Shown here piece after piece: positions 7,003-60,639 of a DNA stretch of 64,000 nucleotides (positions are counted from its first letter, which is position 1; the number at the start of each line of letters is the position of its first letter). The notes beneath the pieces are model-generated. The model ran no database searches. It was not told where the DNA came from and saw only the letters and a program-made list of their open reading frames with translations. Source of the stretch: Cenococcum geophilum (Eukaryota); assembly GCA_050273025.1 (NCBI GenBank), contig CP158635.1, positions 6,758,001-6,822,000 of the forward strand, in the 5' to 3' direction. The position numbers were made by a program, and so were the translations under genes.

Positions 7003-8658
7003 CCAGAGTAATTAATTGAAGTGCATCTTGTATTAAAACTGCAAGAGGTATAGTAGGAGCGTTAGCAGTAATTAGGAGGACATTTAGCGGAATATATCCA
7101 TTTAATAACACTAGGCGGCTAATAAATACAATAACGCTACTAATATAACTCCCCCTTAATGCATAAGCGCTGCAATTTTAAGAATTTTAGACGCATATAC
7201 ATAAATTCACATTATAGTGTAAGCGGATTTATTTAAAGACTAGAGGATTAATTTTAATTATATACCAAAATCTTAACTCTAAGCTAGATATAAAAAACTA
7301 CTATTAAAGGTCCGTAATATTAACGAGTGGACGTGGCTTCTATAAGAGAGCACTATTTACACCTTTCTCTTTAATATAGTCCTGCAAGTCTTAGAGAATC
7401 GCCTAGATTATAGTCTCTAATTTAATTAGAATAGATACTATATAAAAGATATTAAATATACTTAGACTTATAATACGTTAGAGCGATTATATATTAACTT
7501 AGAGAAAGCAGATATATAGATAATATCCTATACTTTTTACTCTCTAGTTCTTTTATAAAGAACACTAAGGAAATCCCGTAGAGGCTTAGGGAACGAATAA
7601 ATTATTTTATAAGAGAGTATATCTATAGTCCTCTTATAAGTTAGAGTCTTATCTATTAGAGTCTTATCTAGGCAAGTGCTAAGAATTTCACTTAATATTA
7701 TATTATTAAGTGTTTGGGGTACTTGTCAGTATTATATATATACAGAATCTACCAGACCCCTAAATGCCCTTTACTAGTTACTTAGGCCCATAGTAATTTA
7801 ATTAAACAATAGACCGGTGCTAGGACGCTTAGAATTATCCAACTTAGAAGGTATTGTTTTCTCGCTTTACGAGCTCTCTGCAGGCCAACTAATCCCAGTA
7901 ATAAAAAACGCCTTTTCCAAATCCACCTTAACAGATCACGGGGTATTCGCTCGTTAATAAAGCTTAGTAATTAATGCACCGTATCTAGAATCTTAATCCT
8001 AACCATAAGCGGCTGTTAAAGTACCAATAATTAATATAAGAGGCAGCTAAATACAACGCTTTAAGAAACTAATAGTCGGCGTAATCTAGCGAGTTGTGGC
8101 TTTAATAAGCAAGCTAATAGTTAAATAAGCATCTATATTAAAAAGTAAAGAGCGGCCGTAAATAGTTAGCGGAAATAGGATAAGCTAGGGAATGGTTTAA
8201 AAGGAGCGGTAAAAATAGTAAAGTAGGGTAGTAATAAATAAAAGATATAGAAGACGCGTTAAGGCAACCGGTAGAGCGGGCGATAAAGGCAATTATATAT
8301 CCCTAGTATAACAGGGCGGAAATTAGCTCTATATATTAGGTATTTCTATATCCTTTCCTTTAGATAGCATCCTTGGATCTATTAAGGCGTCTTACTCTTT
8401 GGCTCCTTAAGGAAGAAATCGTTATAAATTATATATCCTACGCGTTAGTTAGAAAAGGAATCCTCTAATAGCATTAAGGCTTACGGCCTTTTGCGATAGA
8501 ATGAGCTGTATCACTAAATATTTCATATTGCACGCCTAATTAAGTTTGCGACTTATATCGCCTCCTATCTCAGCTAAAAAAGAGGTTTAATTTTTAACTA
8601 CGCATTATAAGTAAAAGCAAGGTTAATAATCGCTACTATATTAGCGCAGCTTTAATAA

Positions 8659-24800: not shown

Positions 24801-27800
24801 TCTAATGCATTTATTTCTATAACTGTTTCTAGTCATAGTTAATAAATCTTAAGAACTAGCTCCTAGGTGAATAATTCTTTAACCTTTTTAAATAGCTCTT
24901 ATTATTCCTTTCCCCATATCTATATTTTTTCTTTCTTTATTAATCGCGTAAATAGTTTAATATTCTTTAACCATTAAGCTATAAACCTTCTACAGTAATT
25001 ACAGAACCCTAGAAATAACCTTAACTGTGTTATATTTTCTAGTTCTTACCAATTTACTATAGCCTTAATCTTCTTTAAATCTATACTAAGTTGGCCTAGT
25101 TTAATAATAAATCTAACGAAATCTATCTTCCTAGTAAAGAATTCGTATTTCTTAATTGCTACTAGTATCTGTTCTTCTTATAGTCTCTTTAAAACCCATT
25201 TAACGTGTTCTCTATATTTTCCCTTACTTATTAAGTAAATAATAATAATATTAAGGTATACCATAACAAATTTATCCAAGTATTCTCTTAATATATTATT
25301 AATACGCTTCTAAAACGTTACTGGTGCGTTTATAAGCCCGAATTATATAACTAATAGTTTATATAGTCCTTCCTTTAACCTAAAGGCTGCCTTTTATTCG
25401 TTGCCTTCCTTAATTCTAATCTAATGGTACGCCTATCTTAGATCTATCTTTATAAAGATTTACGCATTACCTATTCTATCTTAGATTTCGCTAATTAAGG
25501 GTAAAGAATACCTATCCTTCCTAGTGATGCTGTTTAACTATCTATAGTTAATACACAGCCTTAGTTTTTCATTCTTCTTTAGTATAAACAGTACTAGATA
25601 TCCCGCTAATAACTGCAATAGTCTAATATATCCCTTTTATAAGTTTTCCTAGATAAACTCTTTTAATACTCTACCTTCTTCTTTAGTAAGCTTATAGATT
25701 AAAAAGAACCTTAGACTTATTCCTAGTTCTAATTCTATTTTATAGTTCTATGCTATATACTCTAATAGCTTTTTACTCTCTAGTAACTATAGTTTCTTAC
25801 CGTACTTATAGTATCTCTTTAGTATATAACTTAAGCCTTGCTTAGTCTCTTTATATATTACTCTAACCTAGTACTATACCAACTTAGTTTATTATCGCAT
25901 CTTACGTTATTATATATCTCTAATATCAACTTAACCAGTAATTTAATTAATCTTTGGATTGTATTCCTAATACTGCCTTATTATTCCCTAATAGTAATAT
26001 ATTAAAAGACATTTCAATTTATCTCCCTTTAATGGTTATCTAAATTAGTCCTGTTTTAAGATTAATAATACCTCCTCTATAGGCTATTGGATCTCCTAAG
26101 ATTGTTACTAATAGGTAAGAATACTCCTTCTATCTATATAGTAACCCTATTCTTTTAACTACTGCTAGCAAGATATAGTTCCTTATTACTCCACTATCTA
26201 TTAATGCCTTAAACTGTTAATCTTACCATTTAACTTATAAATTTAGGTATTGTCCTTAAATTCCTTTAAGGGTCTAAGACTCTACCACTAGCTCCCTCTG
26301 GTCCTATAGGCCTCTACTTTTCCTAACTAGTGGCTGCTAGATCCTGTTTATACTTAGTCTAACTTAGGCTAATACTTAGTTTATTTCTTTTCTTTAATAT
26401 GCTATAGATAAGTATTTTCTAGATATTCCCACCATTGTTATCTATCTAGGCATTCTTCCGTAAGGAATCTTCCTAGTTAAAGTATTAAGTCCCTTTATTC
26501 TTAAACTTCTATAGGGTGCTAACTATATATATATTTAGCGTTTCTATACTTTACCTTATCTGGCGCCTAATATATCCTTACTAAGTATTTCTAGTTCTTA
26601 TCTTTTAGTGCTCTATATATATTGCACGCGTTATCTATATATATAATCTATACTAACGTATAATGCGCCTAGTATCTTAGGTTAACTCTTGGCTTATCTT
26701 TGTTCTTAAGTTTAAACTTTTCTTGTATTAATCTAAGCGTTATAACTTCACTCGCAGGTACTAAGATTCGCCTCTTGCTTCTCTAGTCCTCTAATTGCTC
26801 CTTTAGATCTTTTAATGTTATAATTAAGGCTCCCTTAATGTGATTTATCGCCTTTTCCGTAATTAGGTAGTTTTAGATAACTCTTTTATCTAGCCATATA
26901 TAGAAATCTTCCCACTTATTATTGTGCCTTTATTTATACCACTTTTAATACAGCTACTGGAGTATATATAGCTTGTCCATAAGGAAGTATCTTTTTATTA
27001 CTATATTATAACAGCCCTTTATATGTTATTCCTCGAACCTAGTTAAAATCCCTAAATCCTCTTCGTTTTCTAGTTTAATAAGCTACTTAGCTTTTAGTGT
27101 GCCTATTCTCAGCCTATTAGTAATTCTCTATACTAGTGCTCTGTCCTTTATACGTCCTAATATACTAGATCTCTTATCTAGTTTCTGTTCTTGCTATGCG
27201 ATAATTTTTGCTCTAAACTCGTCTATAGTTTCTTTTAGTTTACGTCTTACGGATTAATCCTTAAAGTCTTTTTACTTCTTAATCTTAATATTAACTTTTT
27301 AATCTTTAGGCTAAATACTACGTTCCCCTAGTAAGTCTTCTAGGTCTATATACCTATCTCCTAGTTAAATTGCTATTTATGCTATAGATTCTCTAATCTA
27401 TAAAGAAGCCCCTTGCCTCTTACTTATGGGTGTCCTGATTCGTACCCCAAATTCTTAATCCCTTAGATTCTTTAATCCCGAGCTTGCTTCTAACTTAAGC
27501 TTAGCTCTAGCCTTAATCCAATTAGGCTTACTTAGTGTTCTTATCTTATCTTAAGAGTCTTAAATCTTACTTATCTTATCTTAAGAGTCTTATGCCTTTA
27601 GAAAACTTTGTCCTAAGCTTATTCGTATATTGCTAAACTAAGCTATTACTCTCTCTTATTGGTTCTTGTCCGTTGTGGGTCCTTAAGTATACCTTATCTC
27701 GTCTTAAAAATCTTAGTCGTCTTATATCTTATTTTAAGAATCTTAAGCCTTTGGCCTTTTGCCTTTATTACGTGGTAAGCTAGCACTAGCAGTTATTTGC

Positions 27801-40200: not shown

Positions 40201-42278
40201 GACGTAGAGATACCAGTTATAAATATAGTAGAGGACCTACCGTTACTGGTAGTAAGTACCTATAGAGACCCTCTAGTGCTAGCGCAGATTACCTATATAT
40301 AAGGGGGAGGTAATTAAAACCCTAAAACTATTAAGTATACTACAGCAGAGCTATATATACTCTTAGTATAAGCATACCTACAAAACACATATCGGCTGCA
40401 CCCTTTTCTTTACTAGCTCCCGGAAGCACACTACTATATAATAGTTACTTTAACCTCTATAGCCCCTAGCCTACTAGATATATATAAGGAGGAAATTAAT
40501 ATCTTTTCTAATAAGCTAGCAAGTATGCTACCGTAGAACTCTAAGTACAACTATAATCAACTTAAAAGAAGGCAAGACGCCACCGTAAATGCCCCTCTAT
40601 AACCTCTTATAGAAAGAGTTACAGATCTTATAAAAGTACCTAGACAGTGCTCTTAAAAAGGGCTAGATTAGGCCTAGTAAGTCGCCTACTAGAGCACCTA
40701 TCCTCTTTATACCGAAAGCACACGGTATAATACGACTATACGTTGACTATAAACGCCTAAATAAGATCACAATTAAAAATCGGTACCCCCTACCGCTAGT
40801 TAGCGAACTCTTTAATAGGCTTAGCTATATAAAGATATTTATAAAGCTAGATCTTTATAATACGTACTATAGGATTTGCATTAAAAAAGGAGATAAATAG
40901 AAGACCGTATTTAAGACACGCTACGGTCACTTTAAGTACCTAGTAATGCCCTTTAGTCTTACTAACGCCCCTATAACTTTCTAGAGCTATATTTATAAAG
41001 CTCTAGAAACCCTAGTAGATACTATCTATATAGTCTACCTAGATAATATTCTTATCTACTTAAATAATAAGAATAAGCACGTTAAGCACGTTAAGTAGGT
41101 ACTACGACAGCTTTGTACTTAGGGCCTATACGCCAAACTATTAAAATGTATTTTTTATACTAAAAACGTTAAGCTCCTAGGCTTTATTATTACCCCTAGG
41201 GGTATTGTAATAGACCCTAACTATATAAAAGCTATTAAGGAATGGCCTAAGCCTAAGTCTTATAGGGACATCTAGGTCTTCCTTAACTTTACTAACTTCT
41301 ATAGGCGATTTATCTAGAACTACTTAGATATCGTATACCCCCTACATATATATCTTATATAGGCATATTATAACCTAACGTTAAATAGGAAGAAAAAGTA
41401 GAAGCGTAAGTTAAAAGGGCCTACTAAATAGTATTAACCTTAGTCCTAGCCTAATAACGCGCAGTAGGCGTTTTATAAGCTACGCGCTATATTTATATAG
41501 GCTCCTCTACTTCGCCACTTTAACCCTAATCTACCCCTAATAGTAATTACTAACGCTTCTAATTATACCTATAGCGGTATACTTCTATAGCCTTTAGGGT
41601 AAGGAGATTAACTTTACTAGTACCCAATTACTTATTATAGTTAAAAGCTTACTAGCCTAGAAGTATGGTATAATACATATAATAAAGAACTACTCGCTAT
41701 AGTATAATGCTTTAAGACGTAGCGCTATTACCTTAAACACGCCGCGTAAATAACGCGTATACTCTATAATTATAATAATCTTAAGTACTTTATAACCACT
41801 AAGAGCTTATCTACTTGCTAGGCCCGATACGCTAAGAAACTAACTAAGTTTAATTTTAAGATTAAATATAAGCTAGGTAAAGTAAATCCCGTTAATATAC
41901 TATTCTAGCGCCCGGATTATGCTAAAGGCTTTAAAGATAGTAGTAAGAGGATAATCCTTAATGTTATACTACCTATATTATAGCAAAAGTTGCAGGTTAT
42001 AGGCCTTGTGGGCAGCCTTAGTGCTACTATACTAAACTAGCGAGTAGCATGCGTGTAGTATATAAGCGACCCTTGCGAACTTAGCGCCGGCGAACTAAAG
42101 CGTCCTACTATTCTCTTTAAGACTACTTTAACTGGCCTAATAGCGCTTAACCCTAGGGAAGACCCCTTAGCCTAGGCTATAGTCCCCCGCGATAACCTAG
42201 TAAGTCACCTATATATTATATATTACTTTACTAGCACTAACTTTATATAGAGTCTTATGCCATAGCAGGAGGTAATAG

Positions 42279-47968: not shown

Positions 47969-50142
47969 AAACCTTTACCGGACATGCAACCTTACCAAAA
48001 GGTAGCGCAACACTTCAAAACTTACGCATACCCATCTTACCATCAAAAACAATTGATTTTTTAACTTTTAAGACTTAATTCCTACTGCCTAGCGAGCTAG
48101 AGGTGGATTTATTTGTCGTTTTACCCCCTTTCCCCCAACAGAAAATTCTTCTTAGGGGTGGTCCTAGCTTGTAAGCAAGGCACGGATAGGAACACCAAAA
48201 CTAAATACTAAAACCACGAAATATAGAGGCTAGATTTTCTACTACCTTTTAGCCTAATCTCCCTAGAAATCTTCTAGTAGGATTAGTAAGGAGAAAGGGT
48301 ATAAGGATAGTAAAAACTAGGAACCCTTATATAAGATACAAAATACTAAGGCCTAATAGGTCTAAAAAAAAAACCTCCTATAGAAATAAGTAATAAAGGT
48401 TCTACATCTACTTATTCTCCCCCTTCTCCTTCTCCTAGCCCAATTAAGGCAGGAGAAAAAAGAAGACATCCTTAGTCTTCTCCTAAAAAAGAAAACCAAA
48501 AACCTATAAAAAAGACAACAAAACCAATAACTACTACGGATAGTATAGATAATATACCCTCCTATTCCTTTTCTCTAGAACAACATCTAAGCTTCGCTTT
48601 GGAAAGCCTAACCTAGGCCTATAAAGGGCTAGAAGAAGAAGAAGAAGAAAGAGAAGAAATAAAAGAACAAGTTAAATAGCTAGTGTACTATACACAAAGT
48701 ATCCTATTAGGAGAAAATCCCTTTACACAAGAAAAAGAAGAAGAAAAAGAAAAAAAAAGAAAAAGAGAAGACAAACGATGTCCTAAAAGGACTAGTAGAA
48801 GAAGTAAGAGCTCTCCGTAAGGAGGTGGCTCCTATTAAAGAAACTTATACAAAGAGGCTAAAAAAGGACCTCCCTTCTTTATCCTCTATACCTTCCTTAT
48901 TATCGTCTACCCCTCCTTCTTCTAGTAGGGTAACTAGTAGCACGCCTAGCTCTAGCTCTACCTCTACTAGAAGTAAAAAAAAGCAGCTATAAAAAAGGAA
49001 GCTAGTCCTAATTACAGATAAAAAGGACTAATTCCTAGATATTCTTTATACGAAACAAAGTCAATTAACTATTTACATTAAAACTGCAAGTAAAAAAGCC
49101 AGTACTAGCGTCTATAGCTAGAACTAAAGGAAAATAAAAGATTCTCCTTATAACTATAGAAGAGTATAATACAGATTTCCTAGTTAAATATAAGGAGATC
49201 TGGCATAACTGCTTTACCTTTTAAAGAGAACAAAAATTAGAACTATGGGTTTAAATTATAGCCTATAGGGTTCCTACCCTACCTTTCCTAGGAGAAGGAG
49301 GCTCTAAGCTTCTAAAAGAAGAAATTAAGACCTTTAATCCTATAAGGATATAAGGACTACCTAGATAGATCTTATCTAGCGAAAAAAGATATAATCTACA
49401 GACCAGATTTGGCTCTATAGTTTTTATTATAAAGAATAAAGAAAAAAGACAAGAAATCCTTAAGTAAAAAGAGATATTAATTGCAGGTACAGCTACTAAG
49501 GTAGTAAAATACCTCAAAGTCTCTCCTACTACACAATATACTAGCTACTAAAAATTTAGCCATATAGGAGATAGATGCTCTACTAGAGCCTGTAGATTTT
49601 GTACAGCTATATATTTATCTAAAGACCACTCCTGTTCTACCTATATAATAATAGGCAAGCCCTATAAGCATACTACCCCTCTTTGCATTAACTGTAAAGA
49701 AAACCACTTTATAAATAGTAAAGATTACAAGGTTCTAAAAGTAGCTAAGCTAGTAGATAATACTAGCTTAGAAGGTTCTATAGAAGAATAAAACAAAATA
49801 AATAGGATTTTAGAAGGAGGTAACTCCTACTAGGCTTTTAGTAAAAAGATATTAGAGAGCAAAAGGATAGAAATAAATTGCAAAAGGACAGGGATAGGTG
49901 TTAGGATTTCCTATAGTTTTTCCTACCGTTTTCTTATTCCCTAGTAGTCGCAGTACCTTAGTGTTTTATTAAGGAACTATAAACCCTTAGGGGTTTATAA
50001 ACTACTAGGACATAGCTACTAGTACATATTAAGCTGTTTAGAAAGGATTTATGTATATAGAACTATAGCGCCATAGCCTAGAGGCTGCATGCGCAGTATT
50101 ATACGTAGTATAATACAATCGGATATAAAAAATATAAAAAAA
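47969..50142 (+). mobile_element. Non-autonomous LINE derivative encoding only a Tad1-like ORF1 (~48223-49791), A-rich tail, 12-bp TSD ATAAAAGGATTA
   Basis: The TSD copies are at 47957-47968 and 50143-50154. ORF1 ends in CCHC knuckles (..KFSHIGDRC..ACRFC..LCINCKENHF..). No endonuclease or RT lies between the ORF1 stop and the tail. Confidence 0.85.
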
Positions 50143-50892
50143 ATAAAAGGATTAGTTAAAGGTAATAGATAAGCCGGATAATTTAAGAAATCCACCACTA
50201 GCGTATAAGTTATTTCCGCCTCTTCTTAATTAGAATCCTTTTTAGCCTTTTTAGCAAGTTTCTATTCCTTTAAGCGTACCTTTTTACAAACTTTCTTAAG
50301 ACGGGTTAGTTAAGTATAAGCGATCTATTAAGCCTTAAATATCCTCTGCTCTTTAGTATAGATCTACTCCCTATTACTTTAGAGCTTTTATACCTTAGCT
50401 AAGGCTAAGGCTAGCTTACCCTTAAGGTAGGACGCCTTAGATTAAACATAAAACCCTATACTAAATTAGATAAGGTATTAGAGAATTATAAAGAATTATA
50501 AGACGCGTATACTTAGCGTTAAAGATAAATTAAATGTTATAGAATAACTATATATTCGCTTGCGTATACTTAGTATAGAAAAAAGGTTAATAACTAGATA
50601 GAGCCGTAATTATAATATATACTAGCTTCTTCTTCATATAATAAAAATAGGACGGTATAACTTTACTAAATAAAAAAAACCATAGTTACTAGCTAATTAT
50701 AATAATTAGATATAGAGAATCTAATAGAAGGTATTAAAAATAATAAAGGTTATTAAATTAAGAATGGGAATACTATACCTCTAATAAACAACTTAGAGAT
50801 AGGAGAAATCTTTAAGGACAAAGATAAAGTGGAAGGGGGTAGTGTTATAGACCTTATATTAGCAGTAATAGTACTATTAAGGAGAGATATAA

Positions 50893-51906
50893 TAATAATA
50901 ATTCTTCTTTAATTAACGTCTGATACAGATACTATCTAGCCCCACGCAGACTACTCCGTATATAAGGGAAAAGTAATATTAATAGGAAAAAACCCTTGCT
51001 GCTAGGGGGAAGGAAAAACCCTATAAGCCACCTTAGTAGGATAAAAAACCCCGTTTGCTATATCCGCACATAGCAGCGGCCCTATAGGCCTACAGCTATG
51101 TCCTATCCTCTTTAGATATTTAAACTCCTTAGAAACCACTGCTTCCTTCTTTAGCTTATCCAAGCTAGGGTTTACTACGTCCCAGCTAGGCCTTACCACT
51201 TAATTGCTGTGTCTTGCTATTGTCTCCTATATCTTAGCCATCCCTTATATGCTATCTCTTATTTAACTATTGCCATATACGCCATACCTCCCCCCCCCTA
51301 GGGCCTATTAAAGGCGTAAGGGGGATTTATTTGTTCTAACTACCATAATACTAATAAGTAAGCGGGATATTGTATATTTAGGTATCTTTTATACCTAGGC
51401 CCCAGCTAGGCCCTTTCTAAGGGTTACCACTCCGTTAAAAGAAGATAGGGAAAACCGTAGGTTGCAATCTAGGCTGCTAGGTAGTATTTGGTAGAAAAAA
51501 CAGCGAATAACCGCATGCTCCGCGGGCGATCGCCCTGGGGGTTAGGAGGGGCCGTATATTTGCTCGTTGCTCGTTCACTCGCAATCGCTCGTCTATCAAT
51601 ATAAGAGGTCGTTAATGCTTTCTATTAGGGGTCGGGGGATGCTATCAAATGCCGTTTATCCACGTTGGATCGTATAGGTGCCTTAATAGGAGAATAGCGT
51701 AGCTAAATTGTAGAGGGCCACAGTAGTGGTTTTTAAGATCTCACTATCTGAAAATTTTTCACCACCGCCTATAACGCTCACAACCACGACCACTAGGTCC
51801 TATCGCACGCTATATAACGTCTCTGCGTTAGCTCTAAGTCTAAACTTTAAAGACCTAGGTTCGTAGCCGTCACCATATATAGGTGCAGAGTCCGTTTTCG
51901 ACGGCC
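50893..51906 (-). mobile_element. ~1.0-kb non-autonomous non-LTR retroposon (SINE-like) with a 5' ribozyme, an (ATT)n tail and a 15-bp TSD TAAGGAGAGATATAA
   Basis: The TSD copies are at 50878-50892 and 51907-51921. The 3' end reads ggagtagtctgcgtgggg..gacgttaa..gaattattattatt. It is inserted in the Gypsy A 3' LTR. Confidence 0.9.
51821..51906 (-). ncRNA. HDV-like self-cleaving ribozyme (partly RIP-damaged)
   Basis: P1 GGCCGTC/GACGGCT with a G1-U wobble, P2 CTCTGC/GCAGAG, P3 ACC/GGT with a 7-nt L3, P4 CTAGGTCT/AGACTTAG, and J4/2 GCTAAC with the catalytic-position C at 51831. It begins exactly at the element's 5' end. Confidence 0.8.
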
Positions 51907-53012
51907 TAAGGAGAGATATAAATGGGTTAGTTAAGATAGTATAAAAGGTACTAAAAGCGATTAAGCTATAAAATAAGGGGTAGTTAAGTTATACAGCTAG
52001 TTATATTATAGGTTTAGAATGTAAAAATATAGGAACGTAGGAATATAAGACGTACTAATATACTTAGTACATTTCTTAGGCGCAGTATTGTATATTTAAA
52101 GGACCTCAGTCTCTACCTAAATAGTTCTCTTCTTTATAGTAAATCTTAGACTATAATTAGAGTTAATCTATTAGGTAACCTACTCTACTAGTTATATTTA
52201 TATTATTAATTTAACCTATGCCTATATACCTAGCCCATTAACAAGTCTATCGTAGTATTTCCTATAAGGCTTCGTTATAAAGAGATATCTTCTATACTAT
52301 TTTTAATGTAAAAGTAAACCAGAAATATAATGGAAAGAAAGCTATTAGGCGCTACTATTAGGAACTAGACCTAATAGGCCTACTATATAGATATAATAAG
52401 GTTTAGGTGCTATAAGAAGTAAATATAATAGAAGATTTTTATAAAGAATTATAATAATCCTCTAGGCGGCTACTATAGTTAAGCTAAGATAGTAAAATTA
52501 ATTTAGTGTAAATACTATTGGCTAAAGCTTAAATAGGAAGTAAAGGAGTATATTAGCTATTACGAGAAGTGTTAAGTATATAAAATCTATAGGCAAAAGC
52601 CATAGGGTCTTCTTAAATTAGTTCCCTCTATTAGCAAGCTATAGCGATATTACGCTATAGACTTTATTATAGATCCCCCGCTATCTAAAGATGGCTAAGG
52701 ATAAATATATAATTTAGTCCTTATACTTACTAATAGGGCTTTAAAGTGCGTCTAATACCTTTTTATTAATAAGACAATTAATATATAAGCGCTTACTAAC
52801 ATAATTAAGGAGAAATGCTTTCTTAAAGTAAACTAACCGCACTCTATTATTACTAATAAGGGCAGCGTCTTTATAAGCTAGTACTAGTTAGATTTATACT
52901 TTTATTTAAAAATAGACTACTATTATAGTATAGCCTTTTATCTATAAATAGACGAGTAAATAAAATGTTAAAACTAGGAACTGAAGTTTTACCTATAAAT
53001 ATATTTAAACTA

Positions 53013-59662: not shown

Positions 59663-60406
59663 ATGCCTAAGAGTAGTAAAGACTCTAGTATAACTATAAA
59701 CACTAAAATAAGTATTTTAGAGTAGGCGATAAGGTTATATTACGTTTAACAAATATTAAAACCTATTAACTATTAAGCTAGCCTACTATCTCTAGCTACC
59801 CTATCTATAGCCTATATATATCTAGTATTTTATATAAACCTACTAAAGCTATAGTATAGACTACCGCTAAAAAAGAACTTCCGTTTAGGCCTAATTAAAT
59901 ACCCTAAAGTAGTAGGTAAGTAGTATAAGGTTAAAGCTATACTATACTATAAATCTATTAAGAATAAGCTTTACTATAAAGTTAAATAGCTAGACTAGCC
60001 TATTAAGGACTTTATATAGGAACTAGAGGATTACCTTAATTATTATAAAGATATTTTAAAAGAATATTAGGACTACGGTCTATAATCCATAAATTATAAA
60101 AAGCGCTCTAATACTATAGTGTTATTACAACCTATAAAGAAAGCTTGTAGTAGGCCATAAAGAGGCTTTAAAGAGTAAGAAATAGGCTAAATCGGATATA
60201 AAATGGATAGGCTTTAGAAACTATTGGGATAGGGCTATAGCCTTTATATATATAGTATAGAATTAATAGGGCATTTTGCTATAATTGTATTTCTATTAAT
60301 TAATTTATACCAAGAATATTATTCCTAGGGCTCCTAAGCCCTTTTTAAAAGCCTTTTAAGGCCTTCTTAAGTACCTAATTAAGGTCTTTAATTACTACTA
60401 TATATA

Positions 60407-60588
60407 GAGCACCATAGGCGACTCGCAGGCGCTAAGCAGGCGAGTCCCAAAAGGCGGGGAGATAGATCGCGGGGTTTTCTCATTTTTCTTAAATAGAGTT
60501 TTCTCCCCACATGTAAATAAGGAGTAGTCCGCGTGGGCCCAATAGGGATCCGAATCGGACGTTAAGCAATGAATTATTATTATTATTA
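60407..60588 (+). mobile_element. 5'-truncated LINE/SINE 3' end (182 bp), (ATT)n tail, 18-bp TSD TAATTACTACTATATATA
   Basis: The TSD copies are at 60389-60406 and 60589-60606. The last ~80 nt resemble the 3' end of the 50893-51906 element. Confidence 0.85.
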
Positions 60589-60639
60589 TAATTACTACTA
60601 TATATAAGAATAAATCCCAAATACCTAATCTAAAAAGCC

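Follow-up and report, generated by a model that had tools for sequence, protein, structure and literature searches.

A decayed copy of a LINE-tailed retroposon family with a predicted HDV-like ribozyme head in the genome of Cenococcum geophilum

Ribozyme-headed retroposons have been documented in insects, other metazoans and trypanosomes. This article is about what is probably an element of their kind in a fungus: a non-coding insertion of about 1 kb in the DNA of Cenococcum geophilum, within a stretch of 64,000 nucleotides (GenBank assembly GCA_050273025.1, contig CP158635.1, positions 6,758,001 to 6,822,000 of the forward strand) that we call the window and by whose positions we count throughout. 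On the reading we favour, and which we hold to be probable, the insertion is a decayed copy of a family of non-autonomous retroposons of about 1 kb that have a ribozyme of the hepatitis delta virus (HDV) type at their head and are mobilised by a long interspersed nuclear element (LINE) that shares their tail.

The closest described systems are found in Drosophila and in Trypanosoma cruzi. The R2 and R2/R1 hybrid short internally deleted elements (SIDEs) of Drosophila are non-coding elements of the class without long terminal repeats (non-LTR), and an HDV-type ribozyme at their 5′ end sets that end exactly (PMC3414825). At the 3′ side they carry the end of an autonomous element, which the protein of that element recognises, and in this sense they are ‘stringent’ in type. 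They occupy fixed sites in the rRNA genes, are cut from the rRNA co-transcript, occur rarely and arose by internal deletion of their partners (PMC3414825). As in the R2/R1 hybrid SIDEs, the head and the tail of the fungal element come from different elements, the head being of ribozyme type (predicted here) and the tail the 3′ end of a LINE. Unlike the SIDEs, the present family lies scattered through AT-rich repeat DNA, makes variable duplications, has more than 120 copies and was met in a fungal host, and its body of about 850 nt has no detectable relative among the LINE copies we fetched. Derivation by internal deletion of a partner does not describe it, for only the last 54–73 nt are common to element and LINE, and five full-length LINEs start differently. 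In this the element resembles the hybrid SIDEs and not the simple ones.

NARTc of Trypanosoma cruzi is a dispersed, non-autonomous partner of L1Tc, a LINE of the apurinic/apyrimidinic endonuclease type, and the first 77 nt of both form an HDV-like ribozyme that cuts at +1 (PMC3185411, PMC3383444, PMC4035085). The L1Tc ribozyme has helices P1, P2 and P4, a P3 of 3 bp and a P1.1 of 1–2 bp (PMC3185411). The fungal element is likewise a dispersed, non-autonomous partner of a LINE that encodes an apurinic-type endonuclease, and its predicted HDV-like fold has the same helices, a 3-bp P3 and a short P1.1 among them. The two systems part company over their partners: NARTc and L1Tc have the same ribozyme/promoter head, whereas the LINE described below has a different 5′ end that is unable to form P1. 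The trypanosome elements, moreover, are freed from polycistronic transcripts. Among autonomous elements, R2, RTE and baggins also have 5′ HDV-like ribozymes, proposed to free the element RNA from a co-transcript, and a review gives as their signature many ribozyme copies with conserved sequence downstream and differing sequence upstream (PMC6765202). The present family agrees with them in fold class, proposed job and genomic signature, but those elements encode their own reverse transcriptase. Finally, short interspersed nuclear elements (SINEs) of the stringent, LINE-tailed type have a 3′ tail with a conserved stem-loop that is copied from the partner LINE and needed for recognition (PMC5786205, PMC3747384). 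Our element is like them in its LINE-derived tail, its lack of coding capacity and its target-site duplications. It is unlike a canonical SINE in having no small-RNA head of the RNA polymerase III (Pol III) type, in its length of 1 kb and in its internal runs of T.

The element shows the marks of the SIDE and NARTc type: it has no coding capacity, its head is a predicted ribozyme, and its tail is that of an autonomous LINE. The review assigns ribozyme-bearing LINEs and SINEs to metazoans and lists metazoans and trypanosomes (PMC6765202), and a 2026 paper speaks of ‘plant and metazoan genomes’ (PMC13725137). Our literature searches turned up no fungal retroposon described as bearing an HDV-like ribozyme. 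The element would thus appear to be a ribozyme-headed, non-autonomous non-LTR element of known type, if its modelled head is what it seems, in a kingdom for which we found no described case.

A true insertion and its family of relatives

An earlier, sequence-only reading of this locus had proposed a complete element bounded by a target-site duplication; what it had observed is borne out throughout, and its coordinates turned out to be exact (Table 1). The 15-bp repeats on either side are identical, the bases immediately outside them differ, and the duplication starts with TA. In public runs aligned to 50693–52106 at 85% likeness, several DNA contigs join the left flank straight to the right, for instance 50883 to 51913, and so skip 1029 bases, that is, 1014 + 15, and loose ends at 50892 and 51906 run on into the opposite flank. 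They represent empty sites in paralogous copies of the host repeat around the element. Since these empty sites skip the 1014 bases of the element and the 15 of one duplication, 50893–51906 is a true insertion and not a chance repeat. Both of its flanks are high-copy repeats in the DNA runs. The insertion stands out in composition as well, with a GC content of 0.434 in the bin 51001–52000 against 0.24–0.41 in all other 1-kb bins of the window.

That the element has neither reverse transcriptase nor endonuclease had also been claimed, and we agree. Pfam, searched in six frames read through stops at E ≤ 1, returned 0 families in 50893–51906, and no open reading frame of 70 aa or more overlaps the element. 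Stop-free stretches of 122–161 codons do run from the very 5′ end in the least mutated copies of the family (L076 7987–8469, L085 7804–8238 and L086 7985–8350). They fall in different frames, and their sole Pfam match, YpM, is weak (E = 0.14) and was discounted; we read these stretches as non-coding.

Relatives were found by scanning metagenome contigs with a 21-base pattern of the head, its loop left free. The scan gave at least 121 loci, for 80 of which flanking sequence of up to 8 kb was obtained. The pattern fixed head positions 17–25 and 33–44, which in the fold described below cover the P1 3′ strand, the P2 5′ strand and both strands of P3. All 120 heads that could be judged, having 30 nt available upstream, have distinct upstream flanks, with no pair within 8 mismatches of 30 among the matches listed. 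Column conservation is at most 0.59 from −30 to −1 and jumps to at least 0.95 from +1 to +7. At least 46 loci carry both head and tail, with the tail motif 800–1100 nt downstream of the head; among the matches listed, it lies 875–995 nt from the first base, G1, in all 46 complete copies. These complete copies are 936–1031 bp long. In 35 of the 46, exact direct repeats of 11–18 bp enclose the element, and all 35 repeats, among the matches listed, are different. In those same 35 the duplication abuts G1 directly, with no extra untemplated bases, and on the other side follows the microsatellite. Three of the 11 copies that have no exact repeat are cut by a contig end, and at least two have, by eye, a repeat with one mismatch. 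Seven more copies were found in the fetched flanks by a covariance-model search. BLAST of the element body against about 0.9 Mb of fetched sequence returned only other family copies, and no relative of the body was found beside LINE genes. The family therefore comprises well over a hundred independent insertions that have the same first G and the same tail of about 60–70 nt plus a short microsatellite. The proposed check, a search for multiple copies of about 1 kb with one internal junction and different duplications, thus came out as predicted.

Nine heads seemed to have no tail. Four of them proved to be full copies with heavy mutation, three (L075, L079 and L095) are interrupted at about 132, 339 and 220 by later insertions of 1.6–2.9 kb, and two, L049 and L055, match only the first 184 and 118 nt. 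We suspected these last two of being ribozyme-headed LINEs and dropped the idea, as Pfam found nothing in the 3.3–3.5 kb downstream. The same head pattern gave 0 matches in a scan of viral_contigs; the tail pattern gave 18, which we rejected as unrelated phage DNA that did not have the rest of the tail.

Two side observations concern how the copies insert. The terminal microsatellite varies within the family, being (TAC)n in some copies and (TTA)n/(ATT)n in others; LINE copies may also end in (AAT)n. Repeat-induced point mutation (RIP) does not produce differences of this type, and the microsatellite may be remade at each insertion. In addition, 28 of the 35 exact duplications start with TA, and there is a weak T/A-rich signal 9–15 nt upstream of the element, which hints at nicking at a favoured site in AT-rich (RIP-mutated) DNA.

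The window copy itself has been heavily altered. Against the column majority of the 46 complete relatives its identity is 86.9%, and 81 of its 129 differences from that majority are C>T or G>A. Its GC content, 44%, falls short of the 50–53% of the least mutated copies. At 67 listed places with A in the window other contigs have G, and at 46 with T in the window they have C, which is the direction expected if the window copy has suffered RIP.

Table 1. Coordinates of the element, its parts and a neighbouring LINE copy in the window
Feature	Positions	Strand	Basis or detail
Non-coding retroposon copy, complete, RIP-mutated, 1014 bp	50893..51906	-	Majority comparison; six-frame Pfam
Target-site duplication at the element's 3′ side, 15 bp, TAAGGAGAGATATAA	50878..50892	.	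Identical 15-mer at 51907-51921
Target-site duplication at the element's 5′ side, 15 bp, TAAGGAGAGATATAA	51907..51921	.	Identical to 50878-50892
HDV-like ribozyme fold (predicted), 90 nt; predicted cleavage 5′ of G at 51906, the element's first base	51817..51906	-	Family covariance model
P1 5′ strand GGCCGTC, pairs with 51865-51871	51900..51906	-	7 bp, G.U at predicted cleavage site
P1 3′ strand GACGGCT, followed by AC (51863-51864), the P1.1 partner	51865..51871	-	Fixed by search pattern
P3 ACC/GGT, 3 bp, enclosing 7-nt L3	51872..51884	-	P3 fixed by search pattern
P2 5′ strand CTCTGC, pairs with GCAGAG at 51821-51826	51885..51890	-	Helix 99.0% paired
P4 hairpin, peripheral helix	51834..51858	-	Length-variable, always a hairpin
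J4/2 AGCTAAC, with candidate catalytic C	51827..51833	-	No non-RIP change among 329 cells
LINE-type 3′ tail: conserved motif, stem-loop (GTCTG 50947-50951 / CAGAC 50918-50922), GACGTTAA (50913-50920), (ATT)n	50893..50964	-	79-81% to LINE
5′-truncated copy of the partner LINE, 183 bp, with 17-bp duplication AATTACTACTATATATA at 60390-60406 and 60590-60606	60407..60589	+	87% over 184 nt to L051 LINE 3′ end

The tail and its LINE partner

Read in the sense direction, the window element ends with GGAGTAGTCTGCGTGGG ... GACGTTAA ... (ATT)4, and the tail motif, GGAGTAGTC.GCGTGGG ... GACGTTAA ... (ATT)4, lies at 50893–50957. It had been recognised as a LINE-type tail, and a LINE with such a tail was indeed found. 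Twenty further tails in the fetched loci have no head upstream. Most of them read GGAGTAGTCCGCGTGGGCC.AATAGGGATC.GAATCGGACGTTAAGCAATGAAT followed by (ATT)n or (AAT)n, and upstream of them lie RIP-mutated elements of about 5.5 kb in which Pfam detects RVT_1 (E 1.2e-9 in L076, 2.1e-14 in L051) and Exo_endo_phos_2 (E 2.6e-4 in L076). The tail of the window copy matches the LINE 3′ end at 81% over 73 nt (L076) and 79% over 70 nt (L051). Where the 1-kb element and the LINE are compared as wholes, only the last 54–73 nt match, at 79–87% identity. The sequence-only reading had called the partner Tad1-like, a label that stays tentative: LINEs of the Tad1 clade have an RNase H domain after the reverse transcriptase, and in the two RIP-mutated LINE copies RVT_1 and Exo_endo_phos_2 were the only domains detected, with no RNase H.

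Five full-length copies of the LINE start at the same base and have unrelated flanks. Their 5′ end differs from the head of the element: in 5/5 copies there is no partner for a P1 of 6–7 bp within 200 nt, and the covariance model built from the family heads finds no match there. Head and tail are therefore of different origins. The sequence-only reading had expected an autonomous LINE with both ends in common with the element; the expectation holds for the 3′ tail, upstream of which the reverse transcriptase and endonuclease domains lie, and fails for the 5′ end, which cannot form the fold.

These comparisons bear on two other ways in which an element such as this could arise. One is that the window copy is no more than a single 5′-truncated or internally deleted copy of a full-length LINE, an explanation with some appeal in that most LINE insertions are truncated and one such lies only 8.5 kb away (60407–60589). 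It is excluded by the more than 120 independent copies with both ends in common, by the collinearity with the LINE of only 54–73 nt and by the different LINE 5′ end, in none of whose five copies P1 finds a partner. This was also the scenario that the sequence-only reading had set against itself. The other is a chimera of the MINE type, in which an RNA is fused to a LINE fragment by template switching. Here a cellular or parasitic RNA would be joined anew to a LINE fragment at each retrotransposition, and a body unrelated to the LINE with nothing but the tail in common is what one would then see. The junction, though, is fixed: the tail stands at its usual distance from G1 in 46/46 copies, the LINE part is always the last 60–70 nt or so, no copy has a longer LINE fragment, and the tail has a stem variant specific to the family. 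We regard such repeated fusion as very improbable.

The stem variant deserves a word of its own. In the consensus stem of 63 tails one pair is U-A in 50 and C-G in 9, and by inspection the C-G tails are of the LINE type. The exchange fits a conserved 3′ stem-loop, though a single evolutionary event could have produced it.

The truncated LINE copy at 60407–60589, 8.5 kb from the retroposon, places the LINE family in the same genome; no LINE copy longer than its 183 bp was found in the window. For the rest, the window (1–64000) has no open reading frame of 150 aa or more and a GC content mostly of 0.25–0.40. It looks like a graveyard of RIP-mutated repeats, and its composition fits RIP-degraded fungal repeat DNA. 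A 77-aa open frame at 40667–40900 resembles, by eye, a reverse transcriptase fragment of an LTR retrotransposon.

The head: predicted fold, constraint and transcription

The head of the element is predicted to form an HDV-like double pseudoknot that would be cut at the first base of every copy, which gives shape to the earlier suggestion of a structured, ribozyme-like 5′ end. We compared it with the HDV-like architecture of L1Tc as described in PMC3185411. Numbered from G1, P1 pairs 1–7 with 36–42 (G1.U42), P2 pairs 17–22 with 81–86 and P3 pairs 23–25 with 33–35. L3 has 7 nt, and P1.1 is made by loop positions 2–3 with the two bases after P1. The P4 hairpin spans 49–73, and J4/2 has 7 nt with a conserved C, C, A and A. 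Over 108 distinct heads, 97.5% of pair cells are paired, against 25–49% when the 3′ partners are slid by 1–3 columns.

The helices differ in how much they can tell us. In P1, 99.3% of cells are paired and the base pair at the predicted cut is G.U in 102/108 heads and A-U in 5; the constancy of its 3′ strand among relatives is uninformative, having been fixed by the search pattern, and the same pattern fixed P3, which is ACC/GGT in 108/108. The pairs of P1.1 are G-C in 79/108 heads and U-A in 108/108. The 3′ strand of P2 was free in the search, and it shows 0 non-RIP substitutions in 280 cells. P4 remains a hairpin in each of at least five length forms, which range from 5–6 bp with a loop of 4–5 nt to about 10 bp. 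L055 and L091, and likewise L039, L046 and L101, have insertions matched between the two strands, and L020, L045 and L123 have short forms. The J4/2 of the family, AGCCAAC, aligns to GCUAA of the Rfam HDV-F-prausnitzii consensus in a sub-threshold alignment.

A covariance model made from 101 family heads scores 112 bits at 51817–51906, its only match in the window; over 896 kb it found no diverged heads, only the same family. We also used a strict descriptor of the HDV-like architecture, one that requires P1.1. It fits 70/117 family heads at the first base, and elsewhere it has about 30 matches, mostly AT-rich, in some 1.84 million positions (about 1.6e-5 per position). The window copy fails it and is found once the P1.1 requirement is dropped. 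Rfam, run on 1.1 kb around a little-mutated copy, gave as its sole match at E ≤ 10 the HDV-F-prausnitzii ribozyme (RF02682), full length and starting at G1, with the P3/L3 stretch nearly identical. Two stray matches to the strict descriptor may be recorded here. One, at 25628 (−) in the window, is AT-rich and was judged to be chance. The other, at oriented position 7376 (+) of L077, is a GC-rich stretch outside the family, unlike the AT-rich chance matches, and might be another ribozyme.

The search left 32 core positions free (the P1 5′ strand, 13–16, 45–48, J4/2, the P2 3′ strand and 87–90), and over 47 aligned copies these have 2 non-RIP substitutions in 1502 cells (0.13%). The corresponding figures are 6.2–7.0% for the body, 8.5% for J1/2 and 1.6% plus indels for P4. 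Non-RIP variants common to at least 3 copies occur in 0/32 core columns and in 188/827 body columns (23%); at the body rate the probability of 0/32 is about 3e-4. The head is therefore under stronger constraint than the rest of the element. The parts of it that vary are J1/2 and P4, and in HDV-like ribozymes J1/2 and P4 are tolerant of change.

The window copy has not kept all of this. All 7 pairs of P1 remain. Its L3 reads TATATAT where the family has TGTACGT, and its J4/2 reads AGCTAAC where the family has AGCCAAC. A RIP-type change has turned the first P1.1 pair from G-C to A.C, and two further L3 positions have RIP-type changes. Because these changes hit P1.1 and L3, the head of this particular copy, as modelled, is probably catalytically dead.

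The family is transcribed. In the RNA run X21, taken as raw reads, both flanks have a depth of 0 while depth within the element climbs to 4500; the metatranscriptome X15 likewise covers the element and leaves the flanks bare. Flanks and element are equally abundant in DNA runs, so that carry-over of DNA does not account for the signal. Plus-strand first mates in X21 exceed minus-strand ones roughly 10- to 100-fold along most of the element, with a smaller excess close to the 3′ end. Should the library be of the usual deoxyuridine triphosphate (dUTP) type, the RNA is the sense strand. No fewer than 428 X21 fragments end at 51896–51897, 9–10 nt inside G1. Libraries of the dUTP type lose about ten nucleotides at RNA 5′ ends, so on that assumption the true 5′ end would lie at or near G1, although an alternative 5′ end is possible. 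We considered whether the loose ends in the RNA data marked another RNA with only the head in common and dropped the notion, the loose-end consensus at 51707 resembling, by eye, the L065 copy; we read these ends as subfamily divergence.

Transcription also raises the question of the promoter. An ordinary Pol III SINE, with a small-RNA-derived head that has diverged past recognition, would account for a non-coding body and a LINE-derived tail, as SINEs have both, and by eye the TTCGAA in the P4 loop faintly resembles a B box. The sequence-only reading had seen no tRNA or 5S head, and neither did we: ARAGORN reports 0 tRNA-like genes on the element, Rfam at E ≤ 10 gives four weak matches in 50000–53000, none to a tRNA, 5S, 7SL or ribozyme family, and around the little-mutated copy it gives no tRNA, 5S, 7SL or U6. 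A length of 1 kb also speaks against a SINE of this sort. More telling are the sense-strand runs of five or more T that precede the tail in 47/47 copies, the conserved ones near 850 and 880. Such runs would stop Pol III before it reached the part that the reverse transcriptase needs, and because of them a Pol III origin is unlikely; we give a diverged Pol III head very little credence.

A more serious contender keeps the LINE-tailed family as we have described it and denies that the head is a working ribozyme. The start at G1 would then be set by an internal promoter of the RNA polymerase II type, or the head would be kept for RNA stability or protein binding, and the HDV-like threading would be a coincidence or a relic. 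Here we must gather the points that weigh against our own reading, several of which favour this alternative directly. A conserved head and a common first base would be equally expected from an internal promoter with a fixed start, and a promoter role is plausible given that the 77 nt of L1Tc and NARTc double as promoter and ribozyme (PMC3383444). The Rfam match is sub-threshold, at 14.6 bits against a gathering score of 44 (E = 8.4), and there is no Rfam HDV match for the window copy (50000–53000) or for 20 short loci searched together. No compensatory changes could be seen in P1, P2 or P3, as the search pattern held the whole of P3 and one strand each of P1 and P2 constant. Double changes occur only in P4 (3 pairs), where G-C becomes A-U, and RIP on both strands could yield them unselected. 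The nested minimum free energy fold of the head beats those of shuffled sequences by no more than a slight margin (z = −1.63). Our strict descriptor was written after the sequence had been seen. The sense orientation of the RNA depends on the assumed library type, and the relatives come from metagenome contigs.

Against this stands the way the pieces fit together. All the architectural elements of an HDV ribozyme are present in register with the first base, for a descriptor whose chance rate is about 1.6e-5 per position. P4 behaves as a dispensable peripheral helix, and J4/2, the P2 3′ strand and the P1 5′ strand show no non-RIP change. The single Rfam match is to an HDV family and is aligned from G1, and the duplications abut G1 with no untemplated bases in 35/46 copies. 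HDV-like ribozymes share little sequence, and a sub-threshold Rfam score therefore lowers the case for membership by sequence and not the support for the fold. We consider a head that is not a working ribozyme unlikely, though by no means negligible.

Proposed mechanism and what it may mean

On the ribozyme reading, which we continue to prefer, the life cycle would run as follows. Read-through transcripts that begin upstream would contain the element, and the first 90 nt or so of its RNA would fold into the HDV-like double-pseudoknot ribozyme, as predicted, and cut just 5′ of G1. The transcripts would in this way be trimmed to an identical 5′-hydroxyl end with no need of a Pol III promoter. 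The LINE protein would recognise the 3′ stem-loop common to its own RNA and that of the element, and would copy the element RNA into new sites by target-primed reverse transcription.

A bolder idea, to which we attach a low probability, is that the HDV-like head is, in this fungus, a free-standing, exchangeable 5′ module that combines a self-cleaving end-maker with an internal promoter like the trypanosome Pr77. It would have been captured by an otherwise unrelated non-coding RNA of about 850 nt, which later gained the 3′ stem-loop of the LINE. Were that so, the family would be a parasite in active transcription, more numerous than its LINE partner, which itself uses no ribozyme.

What we have, in any case, is a family that is abundant, transcribed and short and that has an identified LINE partner lacking a ribozyme. 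Two questions thereby become testable in a fungus: whether an HDV-type ribozyme alone suffices to make the 5′ end of a retroposon RNA, and whether a 3′ stem-loop of about 60 nt is what the LINE recognises. For those who annotate genomes, the family offers a diagnostic for a class of repeats that SINE finders based on Pol III heads miss.

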